A DNA stretch of 64,000 nucleotides from contig DATKPK010000189.1 in assembly GCA_035524095.1 (NCBI GenBank), positions 2,334-66,333 on the forward strand, read 5' to 3'. The notes under the pieces were generated by a model, which saw nothing but the letters and a program-made list of their open reading frames with translations, was not told the DNA's origin and searched no databases. Origin of the DNA: Candidatus Binataceae bacterium. GTDB lineage: Bacteria > Desulfobacterota > Binatia > Binatales > Binataceae. Position numbers and translations under genes: made by a program. Below are positions 6,622-38,866 of the stretch, one piece after another (the first letter of the stretch is position 1; each line of letters starts with the position of its first letter).

Positions 6622-8153
6622 TGCTGCCGCGGGCTGAACTCAAGAATTTTGTACGCGAGGCGCGAGTACTGATTGCGCGGGAACGCGACCTCAGCGCTTT
6701 CGAAATTTACGCGTCCGCCAGCGAGGATCGCGTCGCGCGGATAAACTACACGTCTGACATTCCGTCGCGCGGGGTTGAAGAGTTCAAGTCACTGAATGCT
6801 GAGGGCTTTGCGCTTCGGATCGTAATGAAGCGTGATGCGCACGAGACGGGGACGGCGGCGATCGCGGGTGACCTGGGTCTCGAAGCGGTACGCGATGCAT
6901 TGAAGCGTGCGCGCAATGCAGTAGTGGTTGATCCGCACTTCAATGGTTTGCCGGCGGAGCCATCCAAGCTCCGAGCGGGAGAAGCGGCGAGTGCGAATGA
7001 TTTGATGCGGGCGAACGATGGTTTGCTAGCGTCGGCGGCATGGCAAGTGATCGGCGGAGCAATTAAGACTTTCAGAACCAAGGGGCCAAGCGGACTCGAC
7101 CGGCCTGGACTGATTGTCGGCGGAGATCTTTCCATAATCCGAGATCGGATCGCAGTAACGAATTCAAACTATCGCGATATCAGAACGGATGAGAATGCGC
7201 GCTTCGCCTCATCCATTACCGTGTTGGGCGAGGCGCTTGACGCTAAAGGAACGGCTAGTGCGGTCGGCGGATCGGTTGCTGAGGTAACGCGGTCGGCGGC
7301 GCGGCTCGGGCGTCAGGCGGTGTTGAAGGCGCTCGCACTGCAACACGGAGAGCGTCCGCCCCCGGGGCCATATCGGGTGGTTCTCGGAGCGCAACCGCTG
7401 GCTGAGATCGTCAACTACATGGTGCTTCCGTCGCTGACGACGGGAGCGTTTCACGCATCGAACTCGGCTTATCATGGACGTTTCGGGATGCGCGTGATGG
7501 ATAAACGGATCAGCCTAATTGACGATCCGCTGACGACTGGCGGCCCGGTGAAGCGGCGGATTACGTGCGAAGGATTGCCAACCGCAAAGACCGATTTGAT
7601 CAAATCAGGTGAACTGGTCGGGCTGCTATCGAACTTTTACGACGCTAGGCGGCTGATCAACGATCGGCATCGCGCGGAAAAGCTCGGCCCCGCGGGGGAT
7701 AGAGTGACTATGTTTCCTGTATGCAGCGGATATCGGCTGGGTGACGGAGCGGCGCGGCGCTTTGATGCACATCCGGGGGCGAGCGGCACTAACGTGATAA
7801 TGCGCGCGCGCGATGGTATCAGCGACGAGGAGTTGATCGAGCAAGCGGGCGAGGGAATTTACGTCGGCCGCGTATGGTACACCTATCCAATCAACGGCCA
7901 GCGAAACGGTGATTTCACCTGCACGATCAGCGGCGATTCGTACGTGATTCGCGGCGGGAAACTCGTGAAACCGTTGGCGCCCAACTGTTTGCGCATTAAC
8001 GCGAATATCGAAGATGTGTTCACGCATCCAGTTGCGGTGGGGCGGCGCGCCCAGGCAGCGTCGGTATGGGGATCGCCGGAGGCGTATTTCATGCCTGCGC
8101 TGCTAGCGGACGGAATCACGCTCGCGGCGGTTGGCGCAGCAGATTCGGATTGA
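6621..8153 (+). CDS. PmbA/TldE-like protein (TldD/PmbA family, no HExxxH)
   Basis: 510 aa with family-like blocks (GIYVGRVWYTYPIN, GDFTCTISGDSYVIRGGKL) but no HExxxH. This matches the non-catalytic partner of a TldD/TldE heterodimer. Translationally coupled to the upstream TldD. Confidence 0.75.
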   Translation: MLPRAELKNFVREARVLIARERDLSAFEIYASASEDRVARINYTSDIPSRGVEEFKSLNAEGFALRIVMKRDAHETGTAAIAGDLGLEAVRDALKRARNAVVVDPHFNGLPAEPSKLRAGEAASANDLMRANDGLLASAAWQVIGGAIKTFRTKGPSGLDRPGLIVGGDLSIIRDRIAVTNSNYRDIRTDENARFASSITVLGEALDAKGTASAVGGSVAEVTRSAARLGRQAVLKALALQHGERPPPGPYRVVLGAQPLAEIVNYMVLPSLTTGAFHASNSAYHGRFGMRVMDKRISLIDDPLTTGGPVKRRITCEGLPTAKTDLIKSGELVGLLSNFYDARRLINDRHRAEKLGPAGDRVTMFPVCSGYRLGDGAARRFDAHPGASGTNVIMRARDGISDEELIEQAGEGIYVGRVWYTYPINGQRNGDFTCTISGDSYVIRGGKLVKPLAPNCLRINANIEDVFTHPVAVGRRAQAASVWGSPEAYFMPALLADGITLAAVGAADSD

Positions 8154-8156
8154 GCG

Positions 8157-9212
8157 TTGCCGTCGGGTCCACGCAAATCAGCTTCGGTTGCGAAAGCTCT
8201 CTCGCCGGATTCACCAATCGCGCGGATGACGGCGCGCGGAATCGTCGTCGCTGCGAACCCAGAGGATTGGCGGCGCATCCGTACGTCCTTCAAGCTCGAA
8301 AACCATCTGCGGATACCGGGATTTATTGAACCTGAACTGCTCGAAGTGATGCGCAAATACCTGCGGCGGGCGCGTTTCGAGGAGAGCGAATACGGTACGG
8401 TTGGGCGCGATCTGGCGCTGTGGGACAGTCCGGTGGCGGGCGCACTCCATCTGCTGATGAACGATCCAGCGTTGCTCGATTTCGCACGGCGAATCAGCGG
8501 ATGCGGACCGATCGGGAGCTTTACCGGCCGGCTATACCGGATGGTCACGACGCCCGGGATGGACTTCGATTGGCATAGCGATTTGAAGGAAGGCGATTTA
8601 CGAGTCGGGTTGGCGATGACGGTCAATCTCGGAACCAGGCCATATCATGGCGGGATGCTGGAGATGAAGCGCGTCGATGAGGACGCCATCACCGAGATTC
8701 CGAACGTTGGGCCGGGCGATGCGATCATCTTTCGCCTCGCGCGGAATTTACGTCATCGTGTGACGCCGGTCGAAGGGAAGGTGCCTAAGACGGCGTTTAC
8801 CGGATGGTTCATGCTGGCGCCGAATTTCGCTCAGCTCCGCCGTGAATGGCTGGCTGGGCAATATGAGGTGAATGGAGCTGTCCCACGCCGAAGGCGCAAG
8901 CCGGTGATGCCGTCGCCTACGGATGCTTTCTCGATCTCACCGACGGTGGTGACGCTCGGGACGAGCGATGAGACGATTATCGCGAGCATCGCCACAGGGC
9001 GGTTCCATGGGTTGAACGAGACAGCGGTGCGAATGTGGGAGTTGATGGGGCGGGGGCAATCGCTGCATCGTTCCGCGCTAGCGCTGGCGCGGGAATACGG
9101 AGTGGGCGTGGCGGTAGTCGAGCGTGACCTAACCGAGCTGGCCGCGAACCTGGCGGCGCGTCAATTGATCACGCTCGGAATCGGAAACGAGAAGCCCGCT
9201 CACAACTGTTAG
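8157..9212 (+). CDS. 2OG-Fe(II) oxygenase fused to a C-terminal PqqD-like (RRE) domain
   Basis: HxD...H facial triad candidates DWHSD and LRHRVTPV in a P4H-like core. The C-terminal ~85 aa (GRFHGLNETAVRMWELMGRGQSLHRSALALAREYGVGVAVVERDLTELAANLAARQLI) match the PqqD pattern. TTG start 3 nt after the PmbA stop; alternative ATG at 8226. Confidence 0.75.
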   Translation: MPSGPRKSASVAKALSPDSPIARMTARGIVVAANPEDWRRIRTSFKLENHLRIPGFIEPELLEVMRKYLRRARFEESEYGTVGRDLALWDSPVAGALHLLMNDPALLDFARRISGCGPIGSFTGRLYRMVTTPGMDFDWHSDLKEGDLRVGLAMTVNLGTRPYHGGMLEMKRVDEDAITEIPNVGPGDAIIFRLARNLRHRVTPVEGKVPKTAFTGWFMLAPNFAQLRREWLAGQYEVNGAVPRRRRKPVMPSPTDAFSISPTVVTLGTSDETIIASIATGRFHGLNETAVRMWELMGRGQSLHRSALALAREYGVGVAVVERDLTELAANLAARQLITLGIGNEKPAHNC

Positions 9213-9673
9213 TGGACGAGGTGATCGTCGCGGTAGGTTTCCTGTTTGCTCGTGTAGCCAGTGGGATCCCAGCGGGTCCATACGCCTTCGCGCTTGCCCA
9301 TGCGATACTCGCCCTCGATTGACTTGACGCCGTTGAAATACCAACTGGTGTGGAGTCCATCTTGGAGACCATTGTGGAAATGGTCAACGGCTGAGCGTTG
9401 GCCGTTGGCGTACCAGGTGGTCCATTCCCCTTCCTGAACGCCATCGCGGTAGCTGCCTTGGATTAGCTTGTCGTTGCCTTCGCCGTAAACGATGAAAGGG
9501 CCCTCCTTGACTGGCTTGCCATTGACGATTTTCTGACACCAGACTTCTTCACCCTTAGGTGGTGGAGCGCCCATCAGGGTGTCGCCGGGCGGACAGGTGA
9601 AGGTGGCCGTGTGATGGCAGGCGGCGAGACTCAGCGTCGCCAAAATGATACTGGCGAAGAACGGAGACCGCAT
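9209..9673 (-). CDS. MORN-variant (YwqK-like) repeat lipoprotein
   Basis: Lipobox in the signal peptide MRSPFFASIILATLSLAAC. Repeated G-x-W-x-x-W/Y-x-N-G units (GEWTTWYANGQ, GLHTSWYFNGV, GVWTRWDPTGY). Start chosen at ATG 9673; the track ORF runs to 9733. Confidence 0.7.
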   Translation of the reverse strand: MRSPFFASIILATLSLAACHHTATFTCPPGDTLMGAPPPKGEEVWCQKIVNGKPVKEGPFIVYGEGNDKLIQGSYRDGVQEGEWTTWYANGQRSAVDHFHNGLQDGLHTSWYFNGVKSIEGEYRMGKREGVWTRWDPTGYTSKQETYRDDHLVH

Positions 9674-9765
9674 CAGCGAATTGGAAATCGAAGCGGGCGG
9701 TACGCGCCAATCACGCGTTACTGCCCGCTCCATTGAGAGATCAGCCCCGAAGGGCCGACAGTTGC

Positions 9766-11457
9766 CTAGTTTGCGCCGGTCGAACCGAGCAGGTTGCCGC
9801 CCAACGTCGGGTGGCCGACCGTCTTGTCGCCGATGATGTTGACCATCGCGGGCTTGCCGGACTTAAAGGCGCGTTCAAGCGCGGGAACGATTTCGTCAGG
9901 ATCGGTAACGTTCTCGCCATGACAGCCCATCTCGGCAAAGGCCCGATCGTAACGAATGTCCTGCAGCATGTTGAACGGCTCAGTGCGATCTTTGAGCATC
10001 GGCATCGACTCGAAACTTGGACCCCACGAGCTGTTGTTGTAGAGCACACAGACGATCGGCAGTTTGTAGCGCGCGGCAGTTTCCATATCGAAACCGCCGA
10101 TGCCGAGCCCGCCGTCGCCCATAATCAGCGCGACCTGTGAGCCGGGACGTGCGACCTGCACACCGATGCCCATTCCGAAGCCGTGGCCCACTGGGGCGAG
10201 CGGTCCCGCGTCGATGACCTGGCCGGGGAAGCGGGCGGTGAAGCCCTGGCTCATCCAACCCGACATAGTGAAGCTGTCGATAACGACCGTGGCGTTCTTA
10301 TCGAGCACGGTGACGAGGTCCTTGGTCAGGCGCGCGGGATGAATGGGCTTGTTGGTGTGGAACTTCTTTTCGTTCTCGCCGACGACGCGGTCGAAATTGG
10401 CGCGTACCTCGCCCAATTCCTTGACCCATCCAGAGGAGCGATTCTTCGAGAAGTCGAGCTTCAACTCCTTGATACGGTTGATCATCTGGCGCAGCACCAG
10501 CTTCGGATCACCGACCATCGGAACTTCAGCCGGCACCTGCCATCCGATGCGCGATGGCGTCGGATCAACCTGGATATACTTGGCCTTGTCGTTCCATGTC
10601 GGTGGGCGGCCGAAATGCTCGCCGCTCCAGAAGCGAAAGCCGAGGGTCAGAACCACGTCGGCGCGTCCGGTGAAGGGTTTTTTGAAGGCGCCGCGAATTG
10701 CCAGCGGATGCTCTTCGGAAACTGAGCCTTGGCCGGCGCGGCGGGCATAAACCGGAATCGAGGTAAGCTCGACGAACTCGCGCAATTCGGGCCCAGCCTG
10801 CGACCAGAAGAGGCCGTCACCGCCCGCGATCAAGGGACGTTCGGCGGCGTGCAGTAATTCTATCGCGCGATCAATCTTGGCCGGGTCGCCAGCGGAACGG
10901 ACATCGTCGGGCGTAAAACGCATCCCGCCGCCTTTTTGACGGGCGTCGTCGTCCTTGGCGTAGAGAATATTCTGGGGGATCTCGACCAGGGCGACACCCT
11001 GCGGCGGCGCGAGCGCTTCGCGATAGGCCAGGCGCATATCGAATTCAATCGTGCTCCAATCCGTGACGCGCTTGGTGTACTTGGCGAAGCTGCGCAGCAT
11101 GTCCGAGCCATAGGCTTCCTGGAAGGAGCCTTGATGGTCCTCGGTGTTGGGATGCTGGCCGGAGACACAGACGACGGCGCTGTTGGTCATCGCGGCGAGA
11201 CAGAGGCCGGTCATCGCGTTGGTCAGGCCGCATCCAGCGGTAACCATGCACAATCCGGCTTCGCCGGTCATGCGCGCATAGGCATCAGCGGCATAGGCGG
11301 TGGCCTGCTCATGGCGCATATGGATCAACTTGATCTCGTGGTTGCGCAACTGGGCCAGGATTGGAAAAAGGTGACCACCATTGATTGCGAAACAATAGCG
11401 CGAACGGTTTTCGCGCATTATGCGCGCGACCAGTTCGCCCCCGTCAGCTTTGGCCAT
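9766..11457 (-). CDS. thiamine-pyrophosphate-dependent enzyme (acetolactate synthase / oxalyl-CoA decarboxylase superfamily)
   Basis: 564 aa from ATG 11457, which is preceded by AAGGAGGA. N-terminal Pyr domain (HEQATAYAADAYARMTG...TAGCGLTNA). TPP-binding GDG...NN motif (MGDGGLGIGGFDMETAARYKLPIVCVLYNN). Confidence 0.85.
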   Translation of the reverse strand: MAKADGGELVARIMRENRSRYCFAINGGHLFPILAQLRNHEIKLIHMRHEQATAYAADAYARMTGEAGLCMVTAGCGLTNAMTGLCLAAMTNSAVVCVSGQHPNTEDHQGSFQEAYGSDMLRSFAKYTKRVTDWSTIEFDMRLAYREALAPPQGVALVEIPQNILYAKDDDARQKGGGMRFTPDDVRSAGDPAKIDRAIELLHAAERPLIAGGDGLFWSQAGPELREFVELTSIPVYARRAGQGSVSEEHPLAIRGAFKKPFTGRADVVLTLGFRFWSGEHFGRPPTWNDKAKYIQVDPTPSRIGWQVPAEVPMVGDPKLVLRQMINRIKELKLDFSKNRSSGWVKELGEVRANFDRVVGENEKKFHTNKPIHPARLTKDLVTVLDKNATVVIDSFTMSGWMSQGFTARFPGQVIDAGPLAPVGHGFGMGIGVQVARPGSQVALIMGDGGLGIGGFDMETAARYKLPIVCVLYNNSSWGPSFESMPMLKDRTEPFNMLQDIRYDRAFAEMGCHGENVTDPDEIVPALERAFKSGKPAMVNIIGDKTVGHPTLGGNLLGSTGAN

Positions 11458-11728
11458 CTGCAGATCCTCCTTGATTAGTTCCGGCTTGGTTAGTCCCGGG
11501 CCGGCGGGCTGCGGACCGTGTAGCGGCTGAAAGACCACTATGGCCGGAGCGGGCTGGTGCACACGGGCTGGTAACTATCATCGAAACGAATCCTTGCACA
11601 TTTTAGGGGTGAGCGAAAACCGCAGGCGCCGAAGAAAGCCGCTGGAGATATTGATAGCGTCCGCAAAGTTGATCGAGAGCGCAAAGACTGTAAATGTTGG
11701 GGACCGTTAGTGGTTTGGGGAGGTTCGG

Positions 11729-13120
11729 TTGCGCGGACAACTTGCAAAGCGAATTTTGACGGTCGTGATCGGATTGGCTGGTGCGATATTTACCGGACTT
11801 GCGGTTTCGAATGCGTATGGCGCTTCGACGATTCCGCTGTCGGCTCCCGAGCCTTCAACTTCACCTGCCGTTTCGAATGCTGGTTCGGCAACACCTGCAA
11901 GGCCCGTCACAGCTGCGAATGCCGCACCATTTGACTGGATGCAGCCAAAGACCTGGCCGTCACCATTCAACCCGTACTTGTGGCCATTCAATCTCTTCCC
12001 CGTGCCTGAAGTAGCGACCAATCCCAATGGCGGAGTGACCTATGGCATCCTGCTGGCCTTTCTATTCAAGGATCAGGATGGTCACATCAACAGTATCTTT
12101 GCGCCGGATGTTAACGAGAACAGCGAACTTGGACCGGGCGGATCGTTGAAGTATTTCGCCTACCCGTCAGAGGATACGCAATGGTCAGCGATTGGCGCAG
12201 CGCAGGAAAACATCGCGCGAACGGTCGATTTGAACTACGAAACCGGACGGACGCATGAAAATTGGTGGTCGGCAGAGGGCGAGTTGTTCTTTGAAAGGGA
12301 TCCAACTGAGCGATTCTACGGTATAGGCAACACAACCGACGAGGGCAACGAGACTAATTATACGACCGAGCAACTCTATTTCAGGGCCTTGCTGGGTTGG
12401 AATATAACTCATGACCTGCAGCTAGCCTTCGTGACCAAGCCGCGCTACGTGCGGATTCAGGAAGGAGCATTCACCACGCTGCCGCAGATTTTCACGCTAT
12501 TCCCTAACGTTAAGGGGATTAATGGCGGGAGCGAATTCTACAATGAGTTACGTCTAACCTATGACACGCGGGATTCGATTGAGATGCCCCGCAGTGGTGG
12601 CTTGGGTGTGCTTTACGGCGGCAACGCTGACCGGGCTTTGGCGAGCTCGGTTTCGTATAATCGAATCGGTGGCGAACTCGCCCGCTACTATTCGTTTGGC
12701 AAACGCTTTACGCTGGCGATGCACGGCTATATGCAATACATGCCCGCGGGTGACGAAACGCCGTTTTGGTCGATGGGGTGGTTAGGCGGTGAACCCAGTG
12801 AGTTGTATTACCGAGAAACGCTGCGGGGATTTGGTGCGGGCCGCTTTATCGACAACAATATGACGGACCTCAACATTGAGTTGCGCACACGGGTACTCGA
12901 AGCATCGGTGATGGGCAATAAGGGAGTCCTCGAGGTGGCGCCGTTCCTTGACGCCGGGCAGGTCTTTCACAACGTATCGTACAATCCGGTGGCGGCGCTC
13001 CATCCCGCTGGTGGAATTGGGCTGCGGGCCTTGGCTGAGCCGTTCGTCGTCGCGTACCTGGATGTCGGATGGGGCGGTGAGGGCACGGCGATCTTTACCG
13101 GGATCGATTATCCATTCTAA
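11729..13120 (+). CDS. Omp85/BamA-family outer-membrane beta-barrel protein without recognisable POTRA domains
   Basis: Signal peptide (ILTVVIGLAGAIFTGLAVSNAYG). Loop-6 type motif LRGFGAGRF. Alternating beta-strand pattern and a C-terminal aromatic residue (GIDYPF). TTG start preceded by GGGGAGG. Confidence 0.7.
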   Translation: MRGQLAKRILTVVIGLAGAIFTGLAVSNAYGASTIPLSAPEPSTSPAVSNAGSATPARPVTAANAAPFDWMQPKTWPSPFNPYLWPFNLFPVPEVATNPNGGVTYGILLAFLFKDQDGHINSIFAPDVNENSELGPGGSLKYFAYPSEDTQWSAIGAAQENIARTVDLNYETGRTHENWWSAEGELFFERDPTERFYGIGNTTDEGNETNYTTEQLYFRALLGWNITHDLQLAFVTKPRYVRIQEGAFTTLPQIFTLFPNVKGINGGSEFYNELRLTYDTRDSIEMPRSGGLGVLYGGNADRALASSVSYNRIGGELARYYSFGKRFTLAMHGYMQYMPAGDETPFWSMGWLGGEPSELYYRETLRGFGAGRFIDNNMTDLNIELRTRVLEASVMGNKGVLEVAPFLDAGQVFHNVSYNPVAALHPAGGIGLRALAEPFVVAYLDVGWGGEGTAIFTGIDYPF

Positions 13121-21607: not shown

Positions 21608-22657
21608 TCAGGCGTGGCCGCGATACGGTTCGGTAGGGCTCGTGTGACGGCGGCGTTCGGGATGAGATTTGAAAACCCGGATCAAGTAGCGGTAGGACGG
21701 CAACAGAATCACCGAACCGGCGGCTAAAGCGCCTGCCAAAAGTTCCATAGTGATAGGTGGCGAGACGGAGTTGTAGATCGTGTTGTTCGTCGGAACGATG
21801 TAGGGAAATTGTGCAAAAGCCCAGCCCCACAGAATCATACCGACGTGGGCGGCAGCGAGTACGCGCGCGGCGTTGAAAAAGCGGCGCCAAAGACAATAGA
21901 TGGCGCCGACCCCAGCCAAGCCGTTGGCCCACATCAGAGGCCAAGTCCACTCGCGTCGAGTGAGACCCTCCCAGATGAGCGGGGCTTGGACCCTCGCCAG
22001 CAATAGAACAATCCCAGCGACGAGGCCGGCAAGAAATCCCGAAACGATACCGCGCCGGCGGAAATCGTCGCGCAACGCCTTGTCCGTGGTTTCCAATGGA
22101 GCGTAGCAGGCCGCTAGATACGCGAACAGGACGACAGTGAAGAGGCCGACCGACAGACCAAAAGGCGTCAACCACGGGAGAAAGAAGTCAGCAAGGTGCG
22201 ACGGATGGGACGGGACACGTGCGCCCGCGATAGCGCCGACGATGACGCCCAGCAATAACGGCGTAACTAAGCTGGCGACAGCGAAGAGGCGACCCCATTC
22301 GCGCTCGGCGAGATCGCCACCACCGCCGTAGCTGCGGAAGCTGAAAGCCGAGCCGCGCATCACGATTCCGACGAGTACCAAGGTCAGCGGGACGTGCAGG
22401 CCGATCATGATCCGGCTGAATGCAGGCGGGAAGGCGGTAAACAAAATCACGATGACCAGAATTAGCCATACATGATCGGCTTCCCAGATGGGGCCGATGG
22501 CCTCTTCGATGAGGTTACGCTGAAGATACGCGCGGGGGCCGGTGGCAAGAAGGTCCCAGACACCGCCGCCGTAATCAGCGCCCGCGGTCAGGACGTAAAT
22601 CGTCAGTGAGACGAGCAGCACACCAGATACAAAATAGGTCGCTAACGAGGAAATCAC
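21608..22657 (-). CDS. cydB: cytochrome bd ubiquinol oxidase subunit II
   Basis: Polytopic membrane protein directly after cydA. A GTG at 22657 overlaps the cydA stop (GTGA). The track ORF continues to 22729, but that extension overlaps cydA. ADYGGGVWDL near the N-terminus is typical of CydB. Confidence 0.85.
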   Translation of the reverse strand: MISSLATYFVSGVLLVSLTIYVLTAGADYGGGVWDLLATGPRAYLQRNLIEEAIGPIWEADHVWLILVIVILFTAFPPAFSRIMIGLHVPLTLVLVGIVMRGSAFSFRSYGGGGDLAEREWGRLFAVASLVTPLLLGVIVGAIAGARVPSHPSHLADFFLPWLTPFGLSVGLFTVVLFAYLAACYAPLETTDKALRDDFRRRGIVSGFLAGLVAGIVLLLARVQAPLIWEGLTRREWTWPLMWANGLAGVGAIYCLWRRFFNAARVLAAAHVGMILWGWAFAQFPYIVPTNNTIYNSVSPPITMELLAGALAAGSVILLPSYRYLIRVFKSHPERRRHTSPTEPYRGHA

Positions 22658-24003
22658 GCGACGAGAGCCCTCCGGCGCAGCATACGCGCGACTTCCTCGC
22701 TGTCTGGACTGCGCATCACGTGGCGCCACATCAGGCGCAGCACAGTAATCCCGAGGAAAATATAGAGCGAGGTGAAGAGGAACAGTTGGACCTCGAGGCC
22801 TGGCATCGGCGTGACGGCGTCACGCGTGAGCATGACGCGGTAGATAATCCAAGGCTGGCGGCCGACTTCGGTAACGACCCATCCGGCCTCGACCGCAATC
22901 AGGCCGAGCGGAGTGGCGGCGACCAAGGTTCGGAGAAACCAGGCTGAATCGAAAATCGTGTTTCGACGCCATAGCAACCATAGCGACCAGAGCGAAAGGG
23001 CGGCGAGTGCCATACCAGCGCCAACCATCACTTGAAAGGCCGCGTGGACCGCGAAAAGAGGCTGTGGCCAATCCTGCTGCGGGAAAGAGTCGAGTCCGGT
23101 CACGACCGCGTGGGGATCGTGGTAGGTCATAAGGCTCAGAAGATAAGGCAGCTCGATAGCGTAATCGAGGTGACGGGTTTCGGCATTGGGGATGCCGAGG
23201 ATAGCCAGCGGGGCCCCGGGCTGGGTCTCGAACAGGCCCTCGAAGGCGGCGAGCTTGAGCGGCTGGAGCCGCGCAACCGCACGGGCTGCAATGTCGCCGG
23301 AAAGCGGCTGCATCAATGAAGCAACGGCGCCCATGATAAGGGATATTTTGACCGCGCGCTGATGGAACGGGTTGCCACGGTCACGCAGAAGCATAAAGGA
23401 ATGGACCCCGGCCACGGCGAAGCCGGTCGCAGCGTAGGCGGCGATCGTCATATGCATGACTTCATGGAAGGCGGCAGGATTGGTGAGCGCGGCAATCGGA
23501 TTGATGTCGTATGGATGGCCGCGGCTATCGAGCTTGAAACCGACCGGAGTGTTCATCCAAGCGTTCGCCATCACGACGAAGACGCCGGAAATCATGCCGC
23601 TGAACGAGACGATATAACCGGCGGCGAGGTGGGCGCGCGCCGAGACGCGATCCCATCCGTACATGTAAAGACCGAGGAAAATCGCCTCTGTGAAGAAGGC
23701 GAAGCCTTCGAGCGAAAAGGGCATGCCGATGATCGCCCCAGCCCAATCCATGAAGTGAGGCCAGAGTAATCCAAGTTCGAAGCTGAGCACCGTTCCCGAG
23801 ACGGCGCCGACGGCGAAAAGGATCGCGGTGCCGGTCGCCCATCGGCGAGCGAGCAGGAGATAGACTTCGTCGCGCGTGCGGAGGTGGATCGTTTCCGCGA
23901 GAACCATCAGAAGCGGCATCGCGATACCCATGCACGAAAAGATGATGTGGAAGGCAAGCGAGATGCCCATCTGCGAGCGTGCGGCAATAATATTCGGCAG
24001 CAT
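22654..24003 (-). CDS. cydA: cytochrome bd ubiquinol oxidase subunit I
   Basis: 449 aa. AARSQMGISLAFHIIF N-terminus and GWVVTEVGRQPW near the C-terminus, both hallmark CydA blocks. Confidence 0.92.
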   Translation of the reverse strand: MLPNIIAARSQMGISLAFHIIFSCMGIAMPLLMVLAETIHLRTRDEVYLLLARRWATGTAILFAVGAVSGTVLSFELGLLWPHFMDWAGAIIGMPFSLEGFAFFTEAIFLGLYMYGWDRVSARAHLAAGYIVSFSGMISGVFVVMANAWMNTPVGFKLDSRGHPYDINPIAALTNPAAFHEVMHMTIAAYAATGFAVAGVHSFMLLRDRGNPFHQRAVKISLIMGAVASLMQPLSGDIAARAVARLQPLKLAAFEGLFETQPGAPLAILGIPNAETRHLDYAIELPYLLSLMTYHDPHAVVTGLDSFPQQDWPQPLFAVHAAFQVMVGAGMALAALSLWSLWLLWRRNTIFDSAWFLRTLVAATPLGLIAVEAGWVVTEVGRQPWIIYRVMLTRDAVTPMPGLEVQLFLFTSLYIFLGITVLRLMWRHVMRSPDSEEVARMLRRRALVA

Positions 24004-24036
24004 GCGGGATCCCCTAGAGGGAACGACGAAGCGGGG

Positions 24037-25290
24037 TCAGGTGACGGCGGAAGAGGCCAACAGGTTGGCCGCGGCGCGCGCGATATAAAGTTCTTCGTTG
24101 AGGGGGATGACCCAAAGGGCGATCGCTGAGCCGTCGGCGCTGAAGCAGCGCTCGCCAGAGTCAGGTGCTGTGTTACGCACTGGGTCAAAGTGGACGCCGA
24201 GCGCTTCGAGGCCAATACAGATACGCGCGCGCATCGGCGCCGAATGCTCGCCAATGCCACCGCCGAAGATGATCGCGTCAGCACGTCCAAGCGCTGCCAG
24301 ATAAGCGCCGATATACTTGCGCGCACGATAGCTGAACATCGTGAGGGCGAGTTCAGCAGCTTGGTCGGTGGAGGCCGCCTGCTCGAGCTCCCGCATGTCT
24401 TTCGAGCGTCCGGAGACGCCGAGGAGCCCCGACTCGAAGTTGAGCAACCGCTCGACCTGATCAGGATTCAGATGCTCGGCGCGGCCCAGGTAGCTAAGGA
24501 TCGCCGGATCAAGATCGCCGGAACGGGTTGCCATCATCAGGCCTTCGAGCGGCGTCAGCCCCATCGAAGTGTCCACCGAAACGCCTGCGCGGATCGCGGC
24601 GACTGAGCATCCGGCGCCTAGCTGCAGAGTGATCAGATTGATGGATGACGACGGCCGGCAACTTAATGCGGCGTAGCGCTCGAGCATCCAGGCATGACCG
24701 GGGCCGTGGAAACCGAAGCGGTGGATCCCGTGGCGCGTAGCCATTTCGCGGGGAATCGCATAGGTGCTGGCGTGCAAAGGGATGGTTCGGTGGAAGCTGG
24801 TGTCGGCGTAGACGATCGTCGGCAGATTGGGAAAAAGTTGCTGCACCGCGCGCAGCGTCTTGAGCGCGGGAGGATTGTGCAGCGGTGCGAAGCGGCTGGC
24901 GTCGTCGAGGGCCTCGAGTACGTCAGCGCTGGCGAAAGTGGGTCCGGTGACACGATCACCGCCATGCACGATTCGATGGGCGACGGCATCGAGAGCGAGA
25001 CTGTCGTCAGCGAGAGCGTCGAGGATTAAACGAGCAGCCTTGGCGTGGTCAGCGATGGACTCATCGCTATCGATCAGGGGCCTGCCGCGACGTTTAATGG
25101 TCAGGTGGGCGTTGGGTCCAAGGCGATCAGCGATCCCGTGAGCTATTGCCTGCCCATCGTGATGGCCGACCTCAAGTCTGATCAACTCAAACTTGAGCGA
25201 TGAGCTACCGCAATTGAAGACGAGGATGCGCAAACCGTGGCCTGATTTAATCCTTGCTGCCTTACACGGTAGCTGAGCGGGACCCGCCAA
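24037..25290 (-). CDS. ackA: acetate kinase
   Basis: ILVFNCGSSSLKFEL N-terminal ASKHA phosphate motif and FHGPGHAWM. Start uncertain (TTG at 25290 or TTG at 25233). Confidence 0.9.
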   Translation of the reverse strand: MAGPAQLPCKAARIKSGHGLRILVFNCGSSSLKFELIRLEVGHHDGQAIAHGIADRLGPNAHLTIKRRGRPLIDSDESIADHAKAARLILDALADDSLALDAVAHRIVHGGDRVTGPTFASADVLEALDDASRFAPLHNPPALKTLRAVQQLFPNLPTIVYADTSFHRTIPLHASTYAIPREMATRHGIHRFGFHGPGHAWMLERYAALSCRPSSSINLITLQLGAGCSVAAIRAGVSVDTSMGLTPLEGLMMATRSGDLDPAILSYLGRAEHLNPDQVERLLNFESGLLGVSGRSKDMRELEQAASTDQAAELALTMFSYRARKYIGAYLAALGRADAIIFGGGIGEHSAPMRARICIGLEALGVHFDPVRNTAPDSGERCFSADGSAIALWVIPLNEELYIARAAANLLASSAVT

Positions 25291-33452: not shown

Positions 33453-35816
33453 CTACGGGGAAATGAGGGCGGAGCGGCCTTTGCTCCCCATCCGGACACC
33501 GATCTTTTTCAGAAAGCCGGCGGGCAGTTCGGCTCCGATTAGGGCGAAGATCAATTCGTTGGCGAGTTCGATCGGAGTACTGAGGAGCGGACCAGTGGCG
33601 CGCGCACCTGAAGCCAGTTGAACTGGCGACAGAACCACTTTGTCTGGGCGAATCGCTGTCAGGGCCGTCGCCGGATACATGGTTATACGATGAGCTCGCT
33701 GCAACTCGACGATCTTTTCAACGTTTTCCCGCGAGACGTTGGTGAGCACGGGCGAGCGGAACGAATAAGTCACGCGATTGCCGAGCCGTGGATCGGCGAG
33801 AGCTTGGGCGACTTCGGCGCCAGCGTTGCCGCCACCGACGACGAGAATTTCGCGGCCGTGGTACTCGTCGGCGTCGATCAGCATGTAATGAACGCGGCCG
33901 GGTTCGTCGCCTGGGATGTTCAGATGGCGCGGGTTGCCGCGCACACCAATCGCGAGCACCACGCAGCGGGCCTTGAAGACGTCGCGGCGCGCGGTGACCA
34001 GGCGAAAGAGATCAGGTTCGCGAGCGATGTCGGCCACCTCCTGGCGGTCGTTGATAGTGAGCTTGAGCTGGGCGATGATCCGTTCCCATTCGCGGATAAG
34101 TTCTTCGCGAGAATTGTCACCTTCGAGAAAGAAGGTGCCGTATTCCTCGATATCAATCGGCGTGGCCTGCACGAATTTCGCGCGCGGATAAGCGCGAAGG
34201 GTGCTAGCGGGAGTCATTTTCTCAAGAGTGACGTACTTAAGCCCCATCACTTGAGCGGTAGCGGTGGCGCCGAGGCCTGCGGGACCACAGCCGACAATCG
34301 CGACGTCATAAACATCGGGCTGGACGGGGAGGCGGAGCTGTTTCAGTTCGGCGGCGATCGCTTCAATCACCTGACGTCCCGAGCGCATCGCGAGGTTGAT
34401 TGATGCGGTGCCGGCCGCCTCGCCGATGAGATAAAGACGCCTGACACTGGTCTGGTAGGTGTCGTCAATTAGCGGGACTTCATGGGCAGGCTGTGGCGCG
34501 ACTTCGATCATCACTTCGCCAGCCGCGACTTTAGACGGTACCAGCATCGGAAGGACGAGAAAGCCGAGGCTCGCGGCGAACACGCCGATGGTCCCGAGCC
34601 ACCAGGGTGACATCCGAACAGGCGAAAAATGGAGTCTGCTATTGGAACTGAGTGAGGGCCAGTAGAGGGTCAAATGGAGGTTGCGCGGCTGATTCGGCGG
34701 AAACTTTGGGGCTGGAACGTGGAAGTCGTTGGCGAGGACAACGCCGTGGTGATGGAAGGGATGGCAATCCCCGCAGGCGACAACGCGATCGTCGCCGGGC
34801 GCGGAAGATATGTCAGTGGCGAGAGCATTGCCTACGGCGAGCCATCCGACGAATGCGTGATCGTCAACTAGTGCGGCGGACGTCAGAACGGCAGACTGAA
34901 TCGCGCCGCGGAACGATGACGAATTGAACAATGCTTGAGTCGAACGGTTCGCCGCTGGCGGCGGACTCTGGTGGGCGTGGCAGGTGAAACATTGCGCGAC
35001 GCTCAGGGAAGCGTCGTCGTCGGGTGCGATGCTAGCTGGGATCGTCGCATGACAAGTAATGCATTGCGACGCGAGATGGCCCGGTGAATGGACGAAGACT
35101 GCGTTAATATGAAAAACACGTGCGGAATAGGGCAGAATAACTGGATCAGTTCCGACCGACGCGGGGAGTTTGAGGAACGAATCCTGCGGCGCGATATGGC
35201 ATCCCGCGCCCGTGCATGAACTCCACCGAAAACTCATCGAGTCCTTCTGTGGCGGCGTCACAGCATTGACGATATGGCACGAGGTGCAGGCAAAGCCTCC
35301 TGGCCGTGCCGGATAATGGCTTTCGATCAGTGCCTTATGCAGCTTGTGATTAAACGGCTCGGTGAAGTTATTGGCGGGAGGATCGGGCCGCGTTACGGAT
35401 GCGGCCACATGTTCGTCGACGGCCCGGATCGAGGGATGATGATGGCACCAGGTGCAGGCGAAGGAGGCCGCGGCTGAGATATCGACGATCCGTCCCTGAT
35501 GTTCGCTGTGGCAGCTAAGGCAGGCGAGGTAGTTATTTTTGTCGAGCATCAATTGTCGGCCAGGCGGGACGGACGTCAGCTCGTCACTCATATCCATTGC
35601 GCCGTGCGGATTGACGTCGCTGATATCGCCGTGACAGACGATGCATCGCTGACTGACAGGGCCGTGCCATGCGCGATGGCATGAGCCACATTCACCTTCG
35701 AGCTGCGCATGGGCTGCGATTACGCGGCCAGGCTGATAACTGGTGCGCGGTGCGAGCATCAATGCCGTGAAGAGGATCGCGGCGACGCCGATTATCCAGC
35801 CAAGCCGCCGCATCAT
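33453..35816 (-). CDS. multiheme cytochrome c (8 CxxCH + 1 CxxxxCH) fused via a TM helix to an FAD/NAD(P)-binding oxidoreductase domain
   Basis: N-terminal signal anchor. CxxCH at residues 43, 58, 99, 121, 177, 252, 276 and 348, plus CTGAGCH at 201. Hydrophobic helix at ~404-426. Then DVAIVGCGPAGLGA and ILVVGGGNAGAEVA dinucleotide folds. The start overlaps the upstream stop (ATGA). Confidence 0.8.
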   Translation of the reverse strand: MMRRLGWIIGVAAILFTALMLAPRTSYQPGRVIAAHAQLEGECGSCHRAWHGPVSQRCIVCHGDISDVNPHGAMDMSDELTSVPPGRQLMLDKNNYLACLSCHSEHQGRIVDISAAASFACTWCHHHPSIRAVDEHVAASVTRPDPPANNFTEPFNHKLHKALIESHYPARPGGFACTSCHIVNAVTPPQKDSMSFRWSSCTGAGCHIAPQDSFLKLPASVGTDPVILPYSARVFHINAVFVHSPGHLASQCITCHATIPASIAPDDDASLSVAQCFTCHAHQSPPPAANRSTQALFNSSSFRGAIQSAVLTSAALVDDHAFVGWLAVGNALATDISSAPGDDRVVACGDCHPFHHHGVVLANDFHVPAPKFPPNQPRNLHLTLYWPSLSSNSRLHFSPVRMSPWWLGTIGVFAASLGFLVLPMLVPSKVAAGEVMIEVAPQPAHEVPLIDDTYQTSVRRLYLIGEAAGTASINLAMRSGRQVIEAIAAELKQLRLPVQPDVYDVAIVGCGPAGLGATATAQVMGLKYVTLEKMTPASTLRAYPRAKFVQATPIDIEEYGTFFLEGDNSREELIREWERIIAQLKLTINDRQEVADIAREPDLFRLVTARRDVFKARCVVLAIGVRGNPRHLNIPGDEPGRVHYMLIDADEYHGREILVVGGGNAGAEVAQALADPRLGNRVTYSFRSPVLTNVSRENVEKIVELQRAHRITMYPATALTAIRPDKVVLSPVQLASGARATGPLLSTPIELANELIFALIGAELPAGFLKKIGVRMGSKGRSALISP

Positions 35817-36712
35817 ACACCCGCGAAATAGAGCACGCCGGCGACGTGGCAGATGACCATCACAGAGACGATCATGAAAAGCCCGATATGGAAGCGTAGC
35901 CAGCTTTTGCCGAAACGAAGATTGAATCGATTTTGCTCGAGACGGATCTTGCGCTGGGCGATATCAAGCAGGGCGTCATAGGCCGGCTGATCGGGACCTA
36001 GCACTGACCCTGCCTGCCGTGCGGCCATTGCCAGAGATAGGGCTGGATCGGTCCGCATGAAAGTGCCAAAGAAAAATCGATAGCCTGGATGGGCGCGAGT
36101 GAGCAGCGGACGGATATTGGCAAGATAGGCACGAACCAACGTCTCGGAATGGCCAAGCACGGATTCCTCGGCCTCAACGTAGAGCTGGCGCATCCGCTGG
36201 TCGATGTCCTGCTGGCGGACTTCCTGAGCGCCGCGCAGGAGCATTTCGTGAGGCAAGATGGTTTGAAGGGTCAACCCGAGGGCGCCGGTTGCGACCAAGA
36301 GGAGAAGCGCGGCCTTCAAGACGCTTTCCAGCGGCGTGGAGGGACCCGCCTCTGAATGCCACCAGAACGGCAGCAGCATCAATGCGCCAGCCGTAACGTG
36401 GACGACGCGCCAGCTTTCAAGCCGATCTAAGTTCACGAGACGGCACGCAATTGCTTGAGGCATCAGTGCGGCGGCACGAAGCCACCGAGCGGAGATCCAT
36501 AGATTACGTTTGCGGACGTAATAGAGGAGGGCGATCAGCATTACGACGAGGGTCGCGATGCCGGTGCGGTACGAGCCGAAGCGGGCTGGGAAGTCAGGGG
36601 TTAGCTCGTGGACGATGAATACGACCAAGCCGGCCAGTGTCGCCGACATCGTCGCTGAGCCGAGCGGTGTGGCATGCCGCCGGTCAGCGGCCTCGCCGAG
36701 TTGATCCCTCAC
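35813..36712 (-). CDS. hypothetical 5-TM membrane protein with intramembrane histidines
   Basis: Predicted helices contain His (FIVHEL, WRVVHVTAGAL, PFWWH, RFHIGLFMIVSVMVICHVAG) and there is a ~115-aa soluble helical insert. GTG at 36712 or ATG at 36649. Translationally coupled to the multiheme gene. Confidence 0.65.
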   Translation of the reverse strand: MRDQLGEAADRRHATPLGSATMSATLAGLVVFIVHELTPDFPARFGSYRTGIATLVVMLIALLYYVRKRNLWISARWLRAAALMPQAIACRLVNLDRLESWRVVHVTAGALMLLPFWWHSEAGPSTPLESVLKAALLLLVATGALGLTLQTILPHEMLLRGAQEVRQQDIDQRMRQLYVEAEESVLGHSETLVRAYLANIRPLLTRAHPGYRFFFGTFMRTDPALSLAMAARQAGSVLGPDQPAYDALLDIAQRKIRLEQNRFNLRFGKSWLRFHIGLFMIVSVMVICHVAGVLYFAGV

Positions 36713-36757
36713 TCGTCGTGTTCTTCTAATCCGGCCGCCGTGATCCTTGCGGGTTAT

Positions 36758-38377
36758 TTAGTCGCTGCCGCCGCGAGCCTTACGCACGCGGGAACCTTCA
36801 CTAATCGCGCCGGTTTGTTGAAACAGCTTTGCCGGGTCGATGCGTATAGCGGCTCCAGTAGGACAATTATGCACACATCCCATGAACGGCAGGCCGTCGC
36901 AAAGGTCGCATTTGATCGGAAAGGCGGCGGGAGTGTGTTGTTCCGTCCCGGCTGGCATTGTGAGTGACTTTTGGCTGGCTGGCCGGCCGCCGAAAAGTCG
37001 TTGCCACCATGACGTATCGGTATCGTGTCCGGCGATTGGATAAGGCCGGAAAAAATTTGGATCGCCCATAACGTGAGCCTTGCGCGCCTGGGCCTGGTCG
37101 AAGGTCGGCGAGTCTATCATTGCGATGTTGTCGTAAGGACAGGCAATAGCGCAATTGCCACATCCGATACACATATCGTAGTCGAAATAGATTTCACCTT
37201 CGGGGCGCCGCTTGATCGAACCCGTGGGGCAACTGTTCATGCATTTCGGATCGTCGCAATGGCGGCAGGCGCTCGGTATTAGATATTTACCAATCTGGAT
37301 GCCGTTGCGAATCAGGCGGCTCTTGCCATGCAGTGATTCGCAGGCCTGGACACACTGATCGCACTTGATACAGAGATCAAGGTCCATGACAAGCAGGGCG
37401 TCGGCCTGGATTACGCCAAGCTGGCCGCTGCGCTCAAGTTCGGCCGAGAGTTCGGGCGTGATGCGCCTTTCCTGTTCATGGCGTTGATCGATAACCTTGC
37501 GCACCTGCTTGAGGATTTGTGGGTATTCGCGGCAAAGCTCATAGAAATCATCGCGCTTGATTCTGATTAACTCGCATTTGCCGGCGGTCAATACAGTTGC
37601 CCAGCGGACGCCCGTTTCGAAGAGCGCCATCTCGCCGAAATACTCGCCTGCGCGGAGATAAGCCAGCACGCGATGGGAGCCGTCGTCGTTTTCGCGAATT
37701 ACTTGGACAAAGCCGTCGCGAACAATATACAGTGCGTCGCCCGGCTCACCTTGAGTGACTAAAGGCACCCCGCGAAGCTCGTGGCGGATCACTTCGCATT
37801 TGGGTGCGAGCTGATTCACGAAGTTGGTTGGGACACCGCGGAAGAGTTCGAGATTGATCGCAGTGGCCTTCACCGCCAAATCGCGATAACGATCGGCGAT
37901 TAGGGTGCGAGCCTCGGGATTGATCTCAATATACTTGAGGGCGTAGCGCGGGACGTAAAAGATTTCGGCAGAGCCACGCGCGACCACATCCACTGACCGA
38001 GGCAGGCCGCCGATCGCACCAAGCTCACCGTAGAAATCACCCTGCTGGAGCTGGAGCAAAACGCCGCGCCCGAGTGCTTCGACCTCGTCGACGAGATTGA
38101 CACCTCCGCTTAGTACGAAACAGAGGTCGAGTTCATATTCACCTTTGCGGCAGATAGTTTCGGCATCGTTGAACGTGCGGACACAGAGTCCCGGTTCGCG
38201 CTCGTAGGCGGCTAGAAATGAGTCGCGCTGTTCATCCGTAAAGGTGCGAAAGACAGCAAGCGGATGGAGCCGCTGCCAAAGAATCCACGGGGGCAATTTG
38301 TCGTTGGCGGGTTCCTCCGGCACAAAGTTAGTAGGCCTTGCCGTGTGCAGTATGTCAATCGGCGACGCTGTAGACAT
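36758..38377 (-). CDS. protein with two cyclic-nucleotide-binding domains and a four-cluster 4Fe-4S ferredoxin module
   Basis: Two cNMP-like barrels (GDFYGELGAIGGLPRSVDVVA; GEYFGEMALFETGVRWATVLT). Cys motifs CIKCDQCVQAC, CRHCDDPKCMNSCP, CIGCGNCAIACP and CDLCDG...CVHNCP, as in DmsB/NrfC-type subunits. No signal or Tat motif. Confidence 0.8.
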   Translation of the reverse strand: MSTASPIDILHTARPTNFVPEEPANDKLPPWILWQRLHPLAVFRTFTDEQRDSFLAAYEREPGLCVRTFNDAETICRKGEYELDLCFVLSGGVNLVDEVEALGRGVLLQLQQGDFYGELGAIGGLPRSVDVVARGSAEIFYVPRYALKYIEINPEARTLIADRYRDLAVKATAINLELFRGVPTNFVNQLAPKCEVIRHELRGVPLVTQGEPGDALYIVRDGFVQVIRENDDGSHRVLAYLRAGEYFGEMALFETGVRWATVLTAGKCELIRIKRDDFYELCREYPQILKQVRKVIDQRHEQERRITPELSAELERSGQLGVIQADALLVMDLDLCIKCDQCVQACESLHGKSRLIRNGIQIGKYLIPSACRHCDDPKCMNSCPTGSIKRRPEGEIYFDYDMCIGCGNCAIACPYDNIAMIDSPTFDQAQARKAHVMGDPNFFRPYPIAGHDTDTSWWQRLFGGRPASQKSLTMPAGTEQHTPAAFPIKCDLCDGLPFMGCVHNCPTGAAIRIDPAKLFQQTGAISEGSRVRKARGGSD

Positions 38378-38491
38378 TTGATAAGGTTAGGCTTAGATTT
38401 GAAAATGAAACTGTCCGGACGCAGTCTCAGCTTTAACCCGCAGGGTTTTTCTGTCTCGCGCGCTTCCCGGAAAATCGAAGGAGGGGCTTTG

Positions 38492-38866
38492 ATGCCCACT
38501 AAATTGTACGTAGGTAATTTGGCCTACTCGGTTACCAATGAGGACCTGGAAGGTTTGTTCTCCCAGGCCGGCAAGGTCGACAGTGCCGTCGTGGTAGTCG
38601 ACAAGTTCTCGGGTCAGTCGCGCGGGTTCGGTTTCGTCGAAATGGCAGACTCCAATGACGCTGCCAGAGCGATCGAAGAATTCAACGATACTGAGCTGAA
38701 GGGGCGGAATATTCGCGTCAATGAGGCACGTCCGCGTGAAGGCGGCGGCGGTGGCGGTCCTCGAGGCGGCGGTGGAGGGGGCGGCGGTCGTGATCGTCGC
38801 GGTGGCGGCCGCAATGGTGGTGGCAGTGGCGGCGGTGGAGGGGGCGGCGGCAATCGCCGCTGGTAG
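38492..38866 (+). CDS. RRM-type RNA-binding protein with Gly/Arg-rich tail
   Basis: RNP2 LYVGNL and RNP1 RGFGFVEM. The C-terminal ~40 aa are almost only G/R. ATG at 38492 is preceded by GAAGGAGG; the track ORF start at 38264 is rejected. Confidence 0.9.
   Translation: MPTKLYVGNLAYSVTNEDLEGLFSQAGKVDSAVVVVDKFSGQSRGFGFVEMADSNDAARAIEEFNDTELKGRNIRVNEARPREGGGGGGPRGGGGGGGGRDRRGGGRNGGGSGGGGGGGGNRRW

Follow-up and report, generated by a model that had tools for sequence, protein, structure and literature searches.

A conserved three-gene module of soil Binataceae predicted to link cytoplasmic NAD(P)H to a periplasmic multiheme cytochrome

Introduction

Known bacterial routes for respiratory electron export begin at the quinone pool. 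Whether a bacterium might also draw on cytoplasmic NAD(P)H for this purpose is the question raised by a three-gene locus in Candidatus Binataceae bacterium, a representative of the Binatia, which are abundant in soils, uncultured, and poorly known in their redox ecology. The locus lies in a 64,000-nucleotide (nt) stretch of contig DATKPK010000189.1 (assembly GCA_035524095.1). This entire stretch is referred to as the window, and all positions count within it. A preliminary description made from the letters of the window had interpreted the locus as a modular transmembrane (TM) electron conduit, an interpretation that is supported, at the level of sequence, by the analysis reported here.

The three genes, g1, g2, and g3, are co-directional open reading frames (ORFs), all on the minus strand. 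The layout first described, with a 45-nt gap between g1 and g2 and an ATGA at 35813-35816 through which the g3 start overlaps the g2 stop by 4 nt, was reproduced exactly by the ORF list. PtdE and PtdF, named below, are products of the ptd operon.

36758..38377, minus strand: g1, predicted cytoplasmic regulatory Fe-S subunit, PtdE homologue, 539 amino acids (aa) (ORF, Pfam, BLASTP versus PtdE)
36713..36757, minus strand: g1-g2 intergenic spacer, 45 nt (sequence)
35813..36712, minus strand: g2, five-TM predicted di-heme b cytochrome, PtdF homologue, 299 aa (ORF, hhalign, His pattern)
33453..35816, minus strand: g3, nonaheme cytochrome c-TM-flavoprotein fusion, 787 aa (ORF, motifs)

The module is real, strongly conserved, and uncharacterized. 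Our preferred reading, which we regard as rather probable, is that the three products form an inner-membrane complex, regulated by cyclic nucleoside monophosphates (cNMP) and probably independent of quinones, that would supply periplasmic acceptors with electrons drawn from NAD(P)H. The gene organization, motifs, conservation, homologies, and topology logic behind this reading were computed as described below.

Synteny and gene fusions

Two scans of species-representative genomes yielded 55 distinct loci that carried g2. The gene g1 was directly upstream of g2 in all 55, and g3 was directly downstream, in the same order, in 54; the one locus without g3 was a fragmentary contig. The co-occurrence on which the preliminary description had staked its reading is therefore strict. 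The synteny persisted down to 34% g3 identity and included a Myxococcota-labelled metagenome-assembled genome (MAG). The genes that flank the module in the window, coding for hydrolases, an antiporter, and a protein with an RNA recognition motif (RRM), were common to close relatives only, and any fourth gene family was limited to at most 13 of the first 38 loci. Because synteny is strict while the flanks vary, the module consists of exactly g1-g2-g3.

The stop of g2 and the start of g3 overlapped in at least 25 loci, in which the two genes are thus translationally coupled. The g1-g2 spacer ranged from 17 to 480 nt in relatives and was missing from fused forms. These fusion proteins, of 770 to 870 aa (P0246, P0248, P0249, P0363, and P0367), consist of two cNMP domains, a ferredoxin, and a C-terminal g2 domain, and their existence argues that g1 is physically linked to g2. 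A single ORF combining g1 and g2 was also seen in L033, L039, and L051, all of them nanopore-based MAGs in which frameshift artefacts are possible. At least some of the fusions are real, because they occur in the independent clusters P0248, P0249, P0363, and P0367. Chance co-location of the three genes was ruled out by the synteny and the fusions.

The searches returned more than 170 clusters of full-length g3 proteins and approximately 180 of g2. The g3 homologues came mostly from Candidatus Binataceae MAGs and were annotated merely as "NAD(P)-binding domain-containing protein" or "thioredoxin reductase." In the closest locus (L001), the proteins of the trio were 81 to 88% identical to those of the window. 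One MAG (MFD02416.bin.1.126) had two divergent, full three-gene modules on separate contigs (L011/L066 and L061), and in another (SMAG_U9397; L017/L072 and L074) the second contig, L074, which is 4.3 kb long, showed a g1 homologue only.

Heme and flavin domains of g3 on opposite sides of the membrane

The preliminary description of g3 as an anchor, eight CxxCH motifs and one CxxxxCH motif, a second TM helix, and a flavoprotein with two GxGxxG motifs held in every element.

35748..35804, minus strand: signal-anchor TM1, residues 5 to 23 (hydropathy; AlphaFold2 [AF2] helix at residues 2 to 21; PtdG-like N terminus)
34617..35732, minus strand: periplasmic multiheme domain, residues 29 to 400, with eight CxxCH, one CxxxxCH, and 11 invariant candidate distal His (motifs, Pfam)
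34536..34604, minus strand: TM2, residues 405 to 427, the sole crossing between heme and flavin domains (hydropathy; AF2 helix at residues 404 to 425)
34332..34487, minus strand: relocated C-terminal FAD-binding segment, residues 444 to 495, 'LYLIGEAAGTASINLAMRSGRQ', the mark of the permutation (profile hidden Markov model test)
33456..34331, minus strand: cytoplasmic flavoprotein core, residues 496 to 787, with FAD motif GCGPAG at 509 and NAD(P)H motif GGGNAG at 661 (Pyr_redox profiles, PDB/Foldseek)

The nine heme c motifs fall within residues 43 to 352 and, together with the 11 further His that are candidate distal ligands, were invariant in alignments of 22 and 60 homologues, as were W405 and G408 of TM2 and large parts of the flavin domain. 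The conservation of the heme motifs, and of the Fe-S Cys of g1, is far beyond chance. The heme domain matched Cytochrom_c3_2 (33 bits versus a cutoff of 25) and Cytochrom_CIII in Pfam, with weak matches to NrfH and DmsE, and no ORF of at least 120 aa in the window other than g3 had any CxxCH. Attachment of c hemes takes place in the periplasm, NAD(P)H is found in the cytoplasm, and between the heme c and flavin domains there is exactly one TM helix, so that the flavin domain must lie on the cytoplasmic side, as had been proposed. We know of no characterized precedent for a single polypeptide with c hemes outside the membrane and FAD inside it.

The flavin domain matched Pyr_redox_3 (E value, 3e-28) and Pyr_redox_2 in Pfam, and its best PDB profile match was YpdA/Bdr (7a7b, 1e-22), followed by thioredoxin reductase (TrxR) and TrxR-type ferredoxin-NADP+ reductases (FNR). 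A Foldseek search returned 7a76 at 4.5e-19, and the AF2 predicted local distance difference test (pLDDT) score was 85 to 94 in the flavin core. When residues 444 to 495, which lie right after TM2, precede the first GxGxxG, and are invariant in homologues, were moved behind residue 787, the match to the YpdA model TIGR04018 grew from positions 1-264 to positions 1-314 of 316 (120 to 131 bits), and the match to Pyr_redox_2 grew from 1-256 to 1-290 of 291 (76 to 87 bits). In a phmmer search of the de-permuted domain against the PDB, the match stopped short of the moved segment. The profile results show that this TrxR/YpdA-fold domain is circularly permuted. All g3 homologues kept the permutation, as did the L037, L088, and L091 variants. 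In L037, from an uncultured bacterium (7632-10217, plus strand), the permuted flavoprotein had no multiheme domain and was fused instead to a C-terminal multi-TM domain that has two 4Fe-4S motifs as well as CxxxCP-like ones and is similar to NapH/CcoG polyferredoxins.

Two enzymatic identities for the flavin domain were rejected. As a YpdA-type bacillithiol disulfide reductase it scored 116 to 131 bits against a TIGR04018 cutoff of 339.9, and its first dinucleotide motif is GCGPAG, in which Ala replaces the Cys of the YpdA motif GGGPCG. As a thioredoxin reductase (TIGR01292) it scored 56 bits against a cutoff of 343 and has no CxxC. The only Cys in the domain are C510 and C618. Because the TrxR CxxC and the YpdA Cys are both missing, an FNR-like role is proposed, and one-electron transfer to Fe-S clusters would fit the domain better than disulfide reduction. 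From the residues Y684-S-F-R687, the predicted nucleotide preference is for NADPH.

The likeness to YpdA/Bdr bears on the direction of flow. In sulfate reducers, electrons flow inward through the Tmc and Hmc complexes, and wires of bis-His hemes are reversible, so the periplasmic wire of g3 might gather electrons from cytochromes reduced by H2 or formate, from Fe(II), or from humics, and pass them via g2 and g1 to a flavoprotein that reduces NAD(P)+ or, as YpdA/Bdr does, a cytoplasmic disulfide. YpdA/Bdr is the nearest relative of the flavin domain, yet the YpdA score is far under its cutoff and the residues for disulfide chemistry are missing, with two Cys only in the whole domain. On bioenergetic grounds, reduction of NADP+ (-320 mV) against the membrane potential would demand a donor of very low potential, whereas the window has a cytochrome bd oxidase and no periplasmic hydrogenase or formate dehydrogenase adjoining the module. 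Thus, both the inward gathering of electrons and its proposed cytoplasmic end point seem improbable, with a slim chance for either.

A predicted di-heme cytochrome b in the membrane

Five TM helices were predicted for g2 by hydropathy and in the AF2 model (pLDDT, 82; predicted template modeling score, 0.73), in agreement with the preliminary description. Its report of His inside at least three helices also stood, since His occur in or at TM1 (H35), TM3 (H105 and H119), the end of TM4 (H155), and TM5 (H275 and H289), but the His conserved across the family are on two helices only, TM3 and TM5.

36350..36415, minus strand: g2 TM3, H105-x13-H119 (invariant in alignments of 31, 40, and 87 sequences)
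35825..35899, minus strand: g2 TM5, H275-x13-H289 (invariant in alignments of 31, 40, and 87 sequences)

Among 87 g2 relatives with 14 to 48% identity to g2, the only invariant columns were H105, H119, G143, H275, and H289. The invariance of the four His, like that of the nine heme c motifs of g3, bears out the expectation that these residues would be conserved. Both HX13H pairs sit on helices of equal orientation, and two pairs with 12 to 14 residues between are the pattern of the di-heme superfamily (PF01794, PF14358, and PF01292). Weak matches within the 87 relatives were to DUF4405 (20 sequences), Ni_hydr_CYTB (prokaryotic cytochrome b561; 7), Ferric_reduct (4), and DUF4079 (2), families that belong to the Pfam di-heme cytochrome clan. 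A purified DUF4405 protein binds heme b and has four conserved His placed as in MsrQ (PMC11334425). An exhaustive profile search with g2 returned 457 clusters (at 50% identity) with E values of <1e-3, 24 of them at <1e-30. Thus, g2 is probably a divergent di-heme membrane cytochrome b that lacks a Pfam model, and as such it would define a candidate family of membrane cytochromes.

The N terminus of g2 is placed in the cytoplasm because the g1-g2 fusions join the Fe-S domain to it. With the N terminus inside, H105 and H275 would be close to the inner membrane face and H119 and H289 close to the outer.

The preliminary description had also likened the locus to NADPH oxidases (NOX) and MsrQ, a comparison strengthened by the remote kinship of g2 with di-heme proteins of the DUF4405, Ferric_reduct, and cytochrome b561 types. 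In NOX, MsrQ/YedZ, and DUF4405 proteins, a cytoplasmic NAD(P)H-flavin unit feeds two stacked b hemes held by His pairs on TM3 and TM5, and electrons are exported outward; the weak Ferric_reduct and DUF4405 matches among g2 relatives are in line with this similarity. However, g2 itself matched neither PF01794 nor, in Foldseek, any NOX or MsrQ structure; its predicted TM helices number five instead of six, and it has a helical cytoplasmic insert of 115 aa. The module further differs from NOX in having the dehydrogenase on another polypeptide and of another fold, with four Fe-S clusters upstream and nine c hemes downstream.

A cNMP-binding ferredoxin on the cytoplasmic side

The product of g1 was found to have no signal peptide or Tat motif at its N terminus, two cNMP-binding domains, and four DmsB-like Cys motifs, all as first reported.

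37883..38245, minus strand: cNMP-binding domain A, residues ~45 to 165 (Pfam; cassette [FY]GELGA..G.PR[ST] conserved)
37478..37855, minus strand: cNMP-binding domain B, residues ~175 to 300 (Pfam; cassette degenerate)
36818..37396, minus strand: four-cluster ferredoxin domain, residues 328 to 520, DmsB/HycB/DsrO-like, 16 Cys (Cys motifs, Pfam)

The two cNMP_binding stretches were recognized by PF00027 with an E value of 3e-34 (117 bits versus a cutoff of 27.5). In the phosphate-binding cassette of domain A, the Glu and the Arg-Ser/Thr were retained except in the two most distant homologues, and it is from this conserved cassette that gating by a cyclic nucleotide is inferred.

The Cys of the ferredoxin domain form four groups (C336/339/342/346, C371/374/379/383, C403/406/409/413, and C490/493/501/505) in the order of PF13247, CxxCxxCxxxC, CxxCx4CxxxCP, CxxCxxCxxxCP, and CxxCxnCxxxCP, which is that of DmsB, NarH, and HycB. 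Pfam matches were to Fer4_11 (E value, 2.9e-10) and Fer4_7, NCBIfam gave sub-threshold matches to DsrO, DmsB, and HydN, and PDB sequence matches were to HycB3/4 (7qv7) and HycB (7z0s). Across 30 homologues, all 16 Cys were kept, apart from a single substitution at C406. Five further Cys in the cNMP domains (C76, C86, C194, C268, and C282; codons within 37478-38245) were conserved in 26 to 30 of the 30 and could be part of a further metal or redox-sensing site.

Proposed route of electrons

From these features we infer which cofactors are bound, how the subunits meet, what the substrate and the regulatory ligand are, and which way electrons flow, as follows. NAD(P)H would reduce FAD in the TrxR/FNR-like cytoplasmic domain of g3 that is tethered by TM2, and the FAD would pass single electrons to the four [4Fe-4S] clusters of g1, docked on the cytoplasmic face of g2. 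Electrons might then cross the membrane via two b hemes of g2, the inner held by H105/H275 and the outer by H119/H289, and exit through the nine bis-His c hemes in the periplasmic part of g3, which would hand them to a partner cytochrome or to an acceptor that is soluble or extracellular. Throughput would be set by the cNMP domains of g1 in response to a cyclic nucleotide or related ligand. Outward flow is preferred because the membrane potential assists exit and opposes inward reduction of NADP+.

A more specific form of this proposal is possible, if on the doubtful side. In it, g1-g2-g3 would export electrons from NAD(P)H on their own and independently of quinones, opened by a cyclic-nucleotide switch, as a multi-subunit counterpart of NADPH oxidase with a multiheme output. 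If true, export fed by NAD(P)H and switched by a second messenger would couple the cytoplasmic redox state to the outside in a different way from the known routes, and the driving force added by the membrane potential could deliver electrons of unusually low potential to minerals, humics, or partner cytochromes.

Several observations weigh against the proposed export. The cassette of domain B of g1 is degenerate (R-W/Y, with the Arg lost in one subclade). An Acidobacteriota locus (L089) had g1, g2, and multiheme genes, and no flavoprotein gene was found within 7 kb of them. The AF2 model of full-length g3 was confident in the flavin domain only, with a pLDDT of <50 in the heme domain. There was no acceptor or porin gene near the module within the window. 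The heme b assignment is based on the His pattern and on weak matches of distant g2 relatives; g2 had no Pfam match at E values up to 0.1, no NCBIfam match, and no PDB sequence match at E values up to 10, and Foldseek of the g2 model against the PDB gave only meaningless helical matches (best E value, 0.56).

Relation to the ptd operon

The preliminary description did not recognize the architecture as a characterized complex. No characterized complex matching the trio was found, but a related operon, ptdABCDEFG, had already been named in one preprint, a bioinformatic description in which its function is called "completely unknown" (10.1101/2023.11.21.568154). Its products are PtdA, a pentaheme protein; PtdB, a porin; PtdC, an FAD/NAD(P) oxidoreductase; PtdD, a tetraheme protein; PtdE, a cNMP-binding 4Fe-4S protein; PtdF, a ferric-reductase-like membrane protein; and PtdG, a decaheme protein (10.1101/2023.11.21.568154). 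A literature search for follow-up on the ptd operon found none, and literature searches on Binatia, multiheme fusions, and DUF4405 turned up no account of the g1-g2-g3 trio.

Distant g2 relatives led to loci with the exact ptd gene order (L092 to L098), some in records labelled Verrucomicrobiota, Poribacteria, or Rhodospirillaceae. The g1 product is similar to PtdE (L092:8292-10016) in BLASTP (E value, 3e-36; 29% identity over 351 aa), with equal domain order, and g2 is similar to PtdF, a protein of ~274 aa encoded directly after PtdE, in hhalign (probability, 99.5%; E value, 2.5e-22; 230 columns), with four shared His. Residues 29 to 182 of g3 align to the N terminus of PtdG (E value, 2e-5; 25% identity), and the N terminus and first hemes of g3 resemble those of PtdG. 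In both systems, a cNMP-Fe-S/cytochrome b core is accompanied by periplasmic multiheme cytochromes and by an NAD(P)H flavoprotein that is tethered to the membrane on the cytoplasmic side. However, the flavoproteins are unrelated (best E value, 0.24): PtdC is of the FNR type (FAD_binding_6, NAD_binding_1, and a Fer2 2Fe-2S domain) with an N-terminal TM anchor, whereas that of g3 is of the TrxR/YpdA type, permuted, and TM-fused to the multiheme protein. The window module has three genes versus seven in ptd, and no gene for a PtdA pentaheme protein, a PtdB porin, or a PtdD-like tetraheme protein was found near it in the window. The hosts also differ, soil Binataceae for g1-g2-g3 and marine taxa for ptd. 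Judged by these homologies, the module is best filed as a putative compact, porin-less variant of the Ptd system, in which the flavoprotein would have been replaced by a non-homologous one fused to the cytochrome. The comparison gives the orphan ptd operon, which is widespread (Planctomycetota, Verrucomicrobiota, Poribacteria, Nitrospirales, and Proteobacteria), a testable mechanism.

A third arrangement was found in L088 and L091, where one protein consists, in order, of FHA domains, a TM helix, a multiheme domain, a TM helix, a 2x[4Fe-4S] ferredoxin, and a permuted flavoprotein, and its gene adjoins a fused cNMP-Fe-S-cytochrome b gene. The core of cNMP-Fe-S protein, cytochrome b, and multiheme cytochrome c thus occurs with its NAD(P)H flavoprotein in three arrangements, as the g3 fusion, as the separate PtdC, and as the L088/L091 fusion with a ferredoxin between TM2 and the flavoprotein. 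Because three flavoprotein arrangements have been recruited, NAD(P)H coupling appears to be the function of the core; this is the strongest comparative argument.

The same comparison bears on the possibility that the module is coupled to quinones, with g2 as a cytochrome b that oxidizes quinol or reduces quinone (compare NarI, FdnI, and the CbcL b domain) and serves the nonaheme domain, and with g1 and the flavin domain as a second input or a regulatory branch. The known inner-membrane gateways of extracellular electron transfer (CbcL, ImcH, and CymA) and complex iron-sulfur molybdoenzymes (CISM) do use quinones, some g2 relatives have weak matches to Ni_hydr_CYTB, the family of FdnI and HydC, and the flavoprotein gene missing within 7 kb in L089 points the same way. 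Yet an NAD(P)H flavoprotein, in three recruited forms, is fused or adjacent in nearly all lineages, and a simple quinol:cytochrome c oxidoreductase would have no use for a cytoplasmic four-cluster wire. No motif of a quinone site was identified, though such motifs could not be tested. It therefore seems unlikely that g2 exchanges electrons with quinones, and the side role that this would assign to g1 and the flavin domain has an equally small chance of being correct.

Regulatory domains in the wider family

FHA domains were present in several relatives of the module (L091, 5925-9479 and 9590-10798, both minus strand; L088, ~9300-12525, plus strand; and L098, 6806-9016), with three at the N terminus of the multiheme-ferredoxin-flavoprotein fusion; a PtdE homologue has one. 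A gene for a PP2C-type phosphatase adjoins the module in L091. The FHA domains and the PP2C neighbor suggest control by Ser/Thr phosphorylation besides that by cNMP. A class III nucleotide cyclase (Guanylate_cyc plus AAA_16; L092, 1-1288, plus strand) is encoded a few kilobases upstream of a complete ptd operon, an anecdotal tie to cyclic-nucleotide control.

So many regulatory domains raise the possibility that the cofactor chain is a redox and cNMP sensor, rather than a bulk conduit, that signals the periplasmic redox state inward. The pairs of cNMP domains, the FHA domains of L088, L091, and L098, the phosphatase beside the L091 module, the cyclase near L092, and the five extra conserved Cys of g1 are all consistent with sensing. 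However, Pfam and NCBIfam identified no output domain (DNA-binding, kinase, or cyclase) in g1, g2, or g3, and at least 15 redox centers and a dehydrogenase far exceed what sensing needs, so that a mere sensor is very hard to credit. Tight regulation, by cNMP and in relatives by FHA domains, is understandable for the preferred reading, in which NAD(P)H-fed export would dissipate energy.

Comparison with other electron transfer systems

The 16-Cys domain of g1 is of the DmsB/HycB type that is found in pairs such as NarH/NarI and FdnH/FdnI and in HycB, and, as in the CISM pairs, it is predicted to dock on a di-heme cytochrome. Unlike CISM enzymes, the module has no molybdopterin catalytic subunit, g1 has two cNMP domains, no evidence of a quinone site was found, and g2 is not detectably related by sequence to NarI or FdnI. 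A remnant of a CISM enzyme was rejected because no catalytic gene of the molybdenum-bis(pyranopterin guanine dinucleotide) or hydrogenase type was present in the module or its flanks in any locus.

In Tmc and Hmc of Desulfovibrio, a cytochrome b in the membrane connects a periplasmic c3-type multiheme cytochrome with Fe-S proteins of the cytoplasm, and the cytoplasmic subunits of Tmc, Hmc, and Nhc are HdrD-like CCG proteins. CbcL of Geobacter has a nine-heme periplasmic domain fused to a di-heme b domain and no known cytoplasmic module. None of these is known to have a flavoprotein or a cNMP domain. The wiring logic of g1-g3 is similar, whereas a sequence relationship was not detected in NCBIfam and PDB searches.

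The g3 flavin domain shares the two-Rossmann FAD/NAD(P)H fold with YpdA/Bdr and TrxR-type ferredoxin-NADP+ reductases (7a76, 7a7b, 3ab1, and 3lzw) and is unlike YpdA and TrxR in being permuted, membrane tethered, and devoid of the YpdA Cys and the TrxR CxxC. A permuted, membrane-tethered flavoprotein of the TrxR fold is relevant to protein evolution and to the engineering of transmembrane electron conduits.

Neighboring genes

In distant loci, a gene for an octaheme or tetraheme cytochrome adjoins the module. The octaheme neighbors accompany the most divergent modules (L034, 10151-11899, plus strand; L031, 7126-8937, minus strand; L032, 10123-12333, minus strand; and L036, 2280-4025, minus strand) and are secreted proteins with an N-terminal SH3-like domain, a c554-like tetraheme domain, a long linker rich in Ala, Glu, and Lys, and a C-terminal c3-like tetraheme domain. 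The octaheme protein is a candidate periplasmic or extracellular partner of the module; its gene is not in the window.

A scan for promoters and terminators returned background levels and was uninformative. Divergent from g1, at 38489-38866 on the plus strand, is the gene for the RRM-type RNA-binding protein, which has a Gly-rich tail. This protein was 92 to 100% identical across Binataceae loci in which g3 was only ~55% identical, an unusual degree of conservation compared with its neighbors. Approximately 10 kb from the module, at 21608-25290 on the minus strand, are genes for subunits I and II of cytochrome bd oxidase and for acetate kinase, which indicate a (micro)aerobic respiratory lifestyle of the host.

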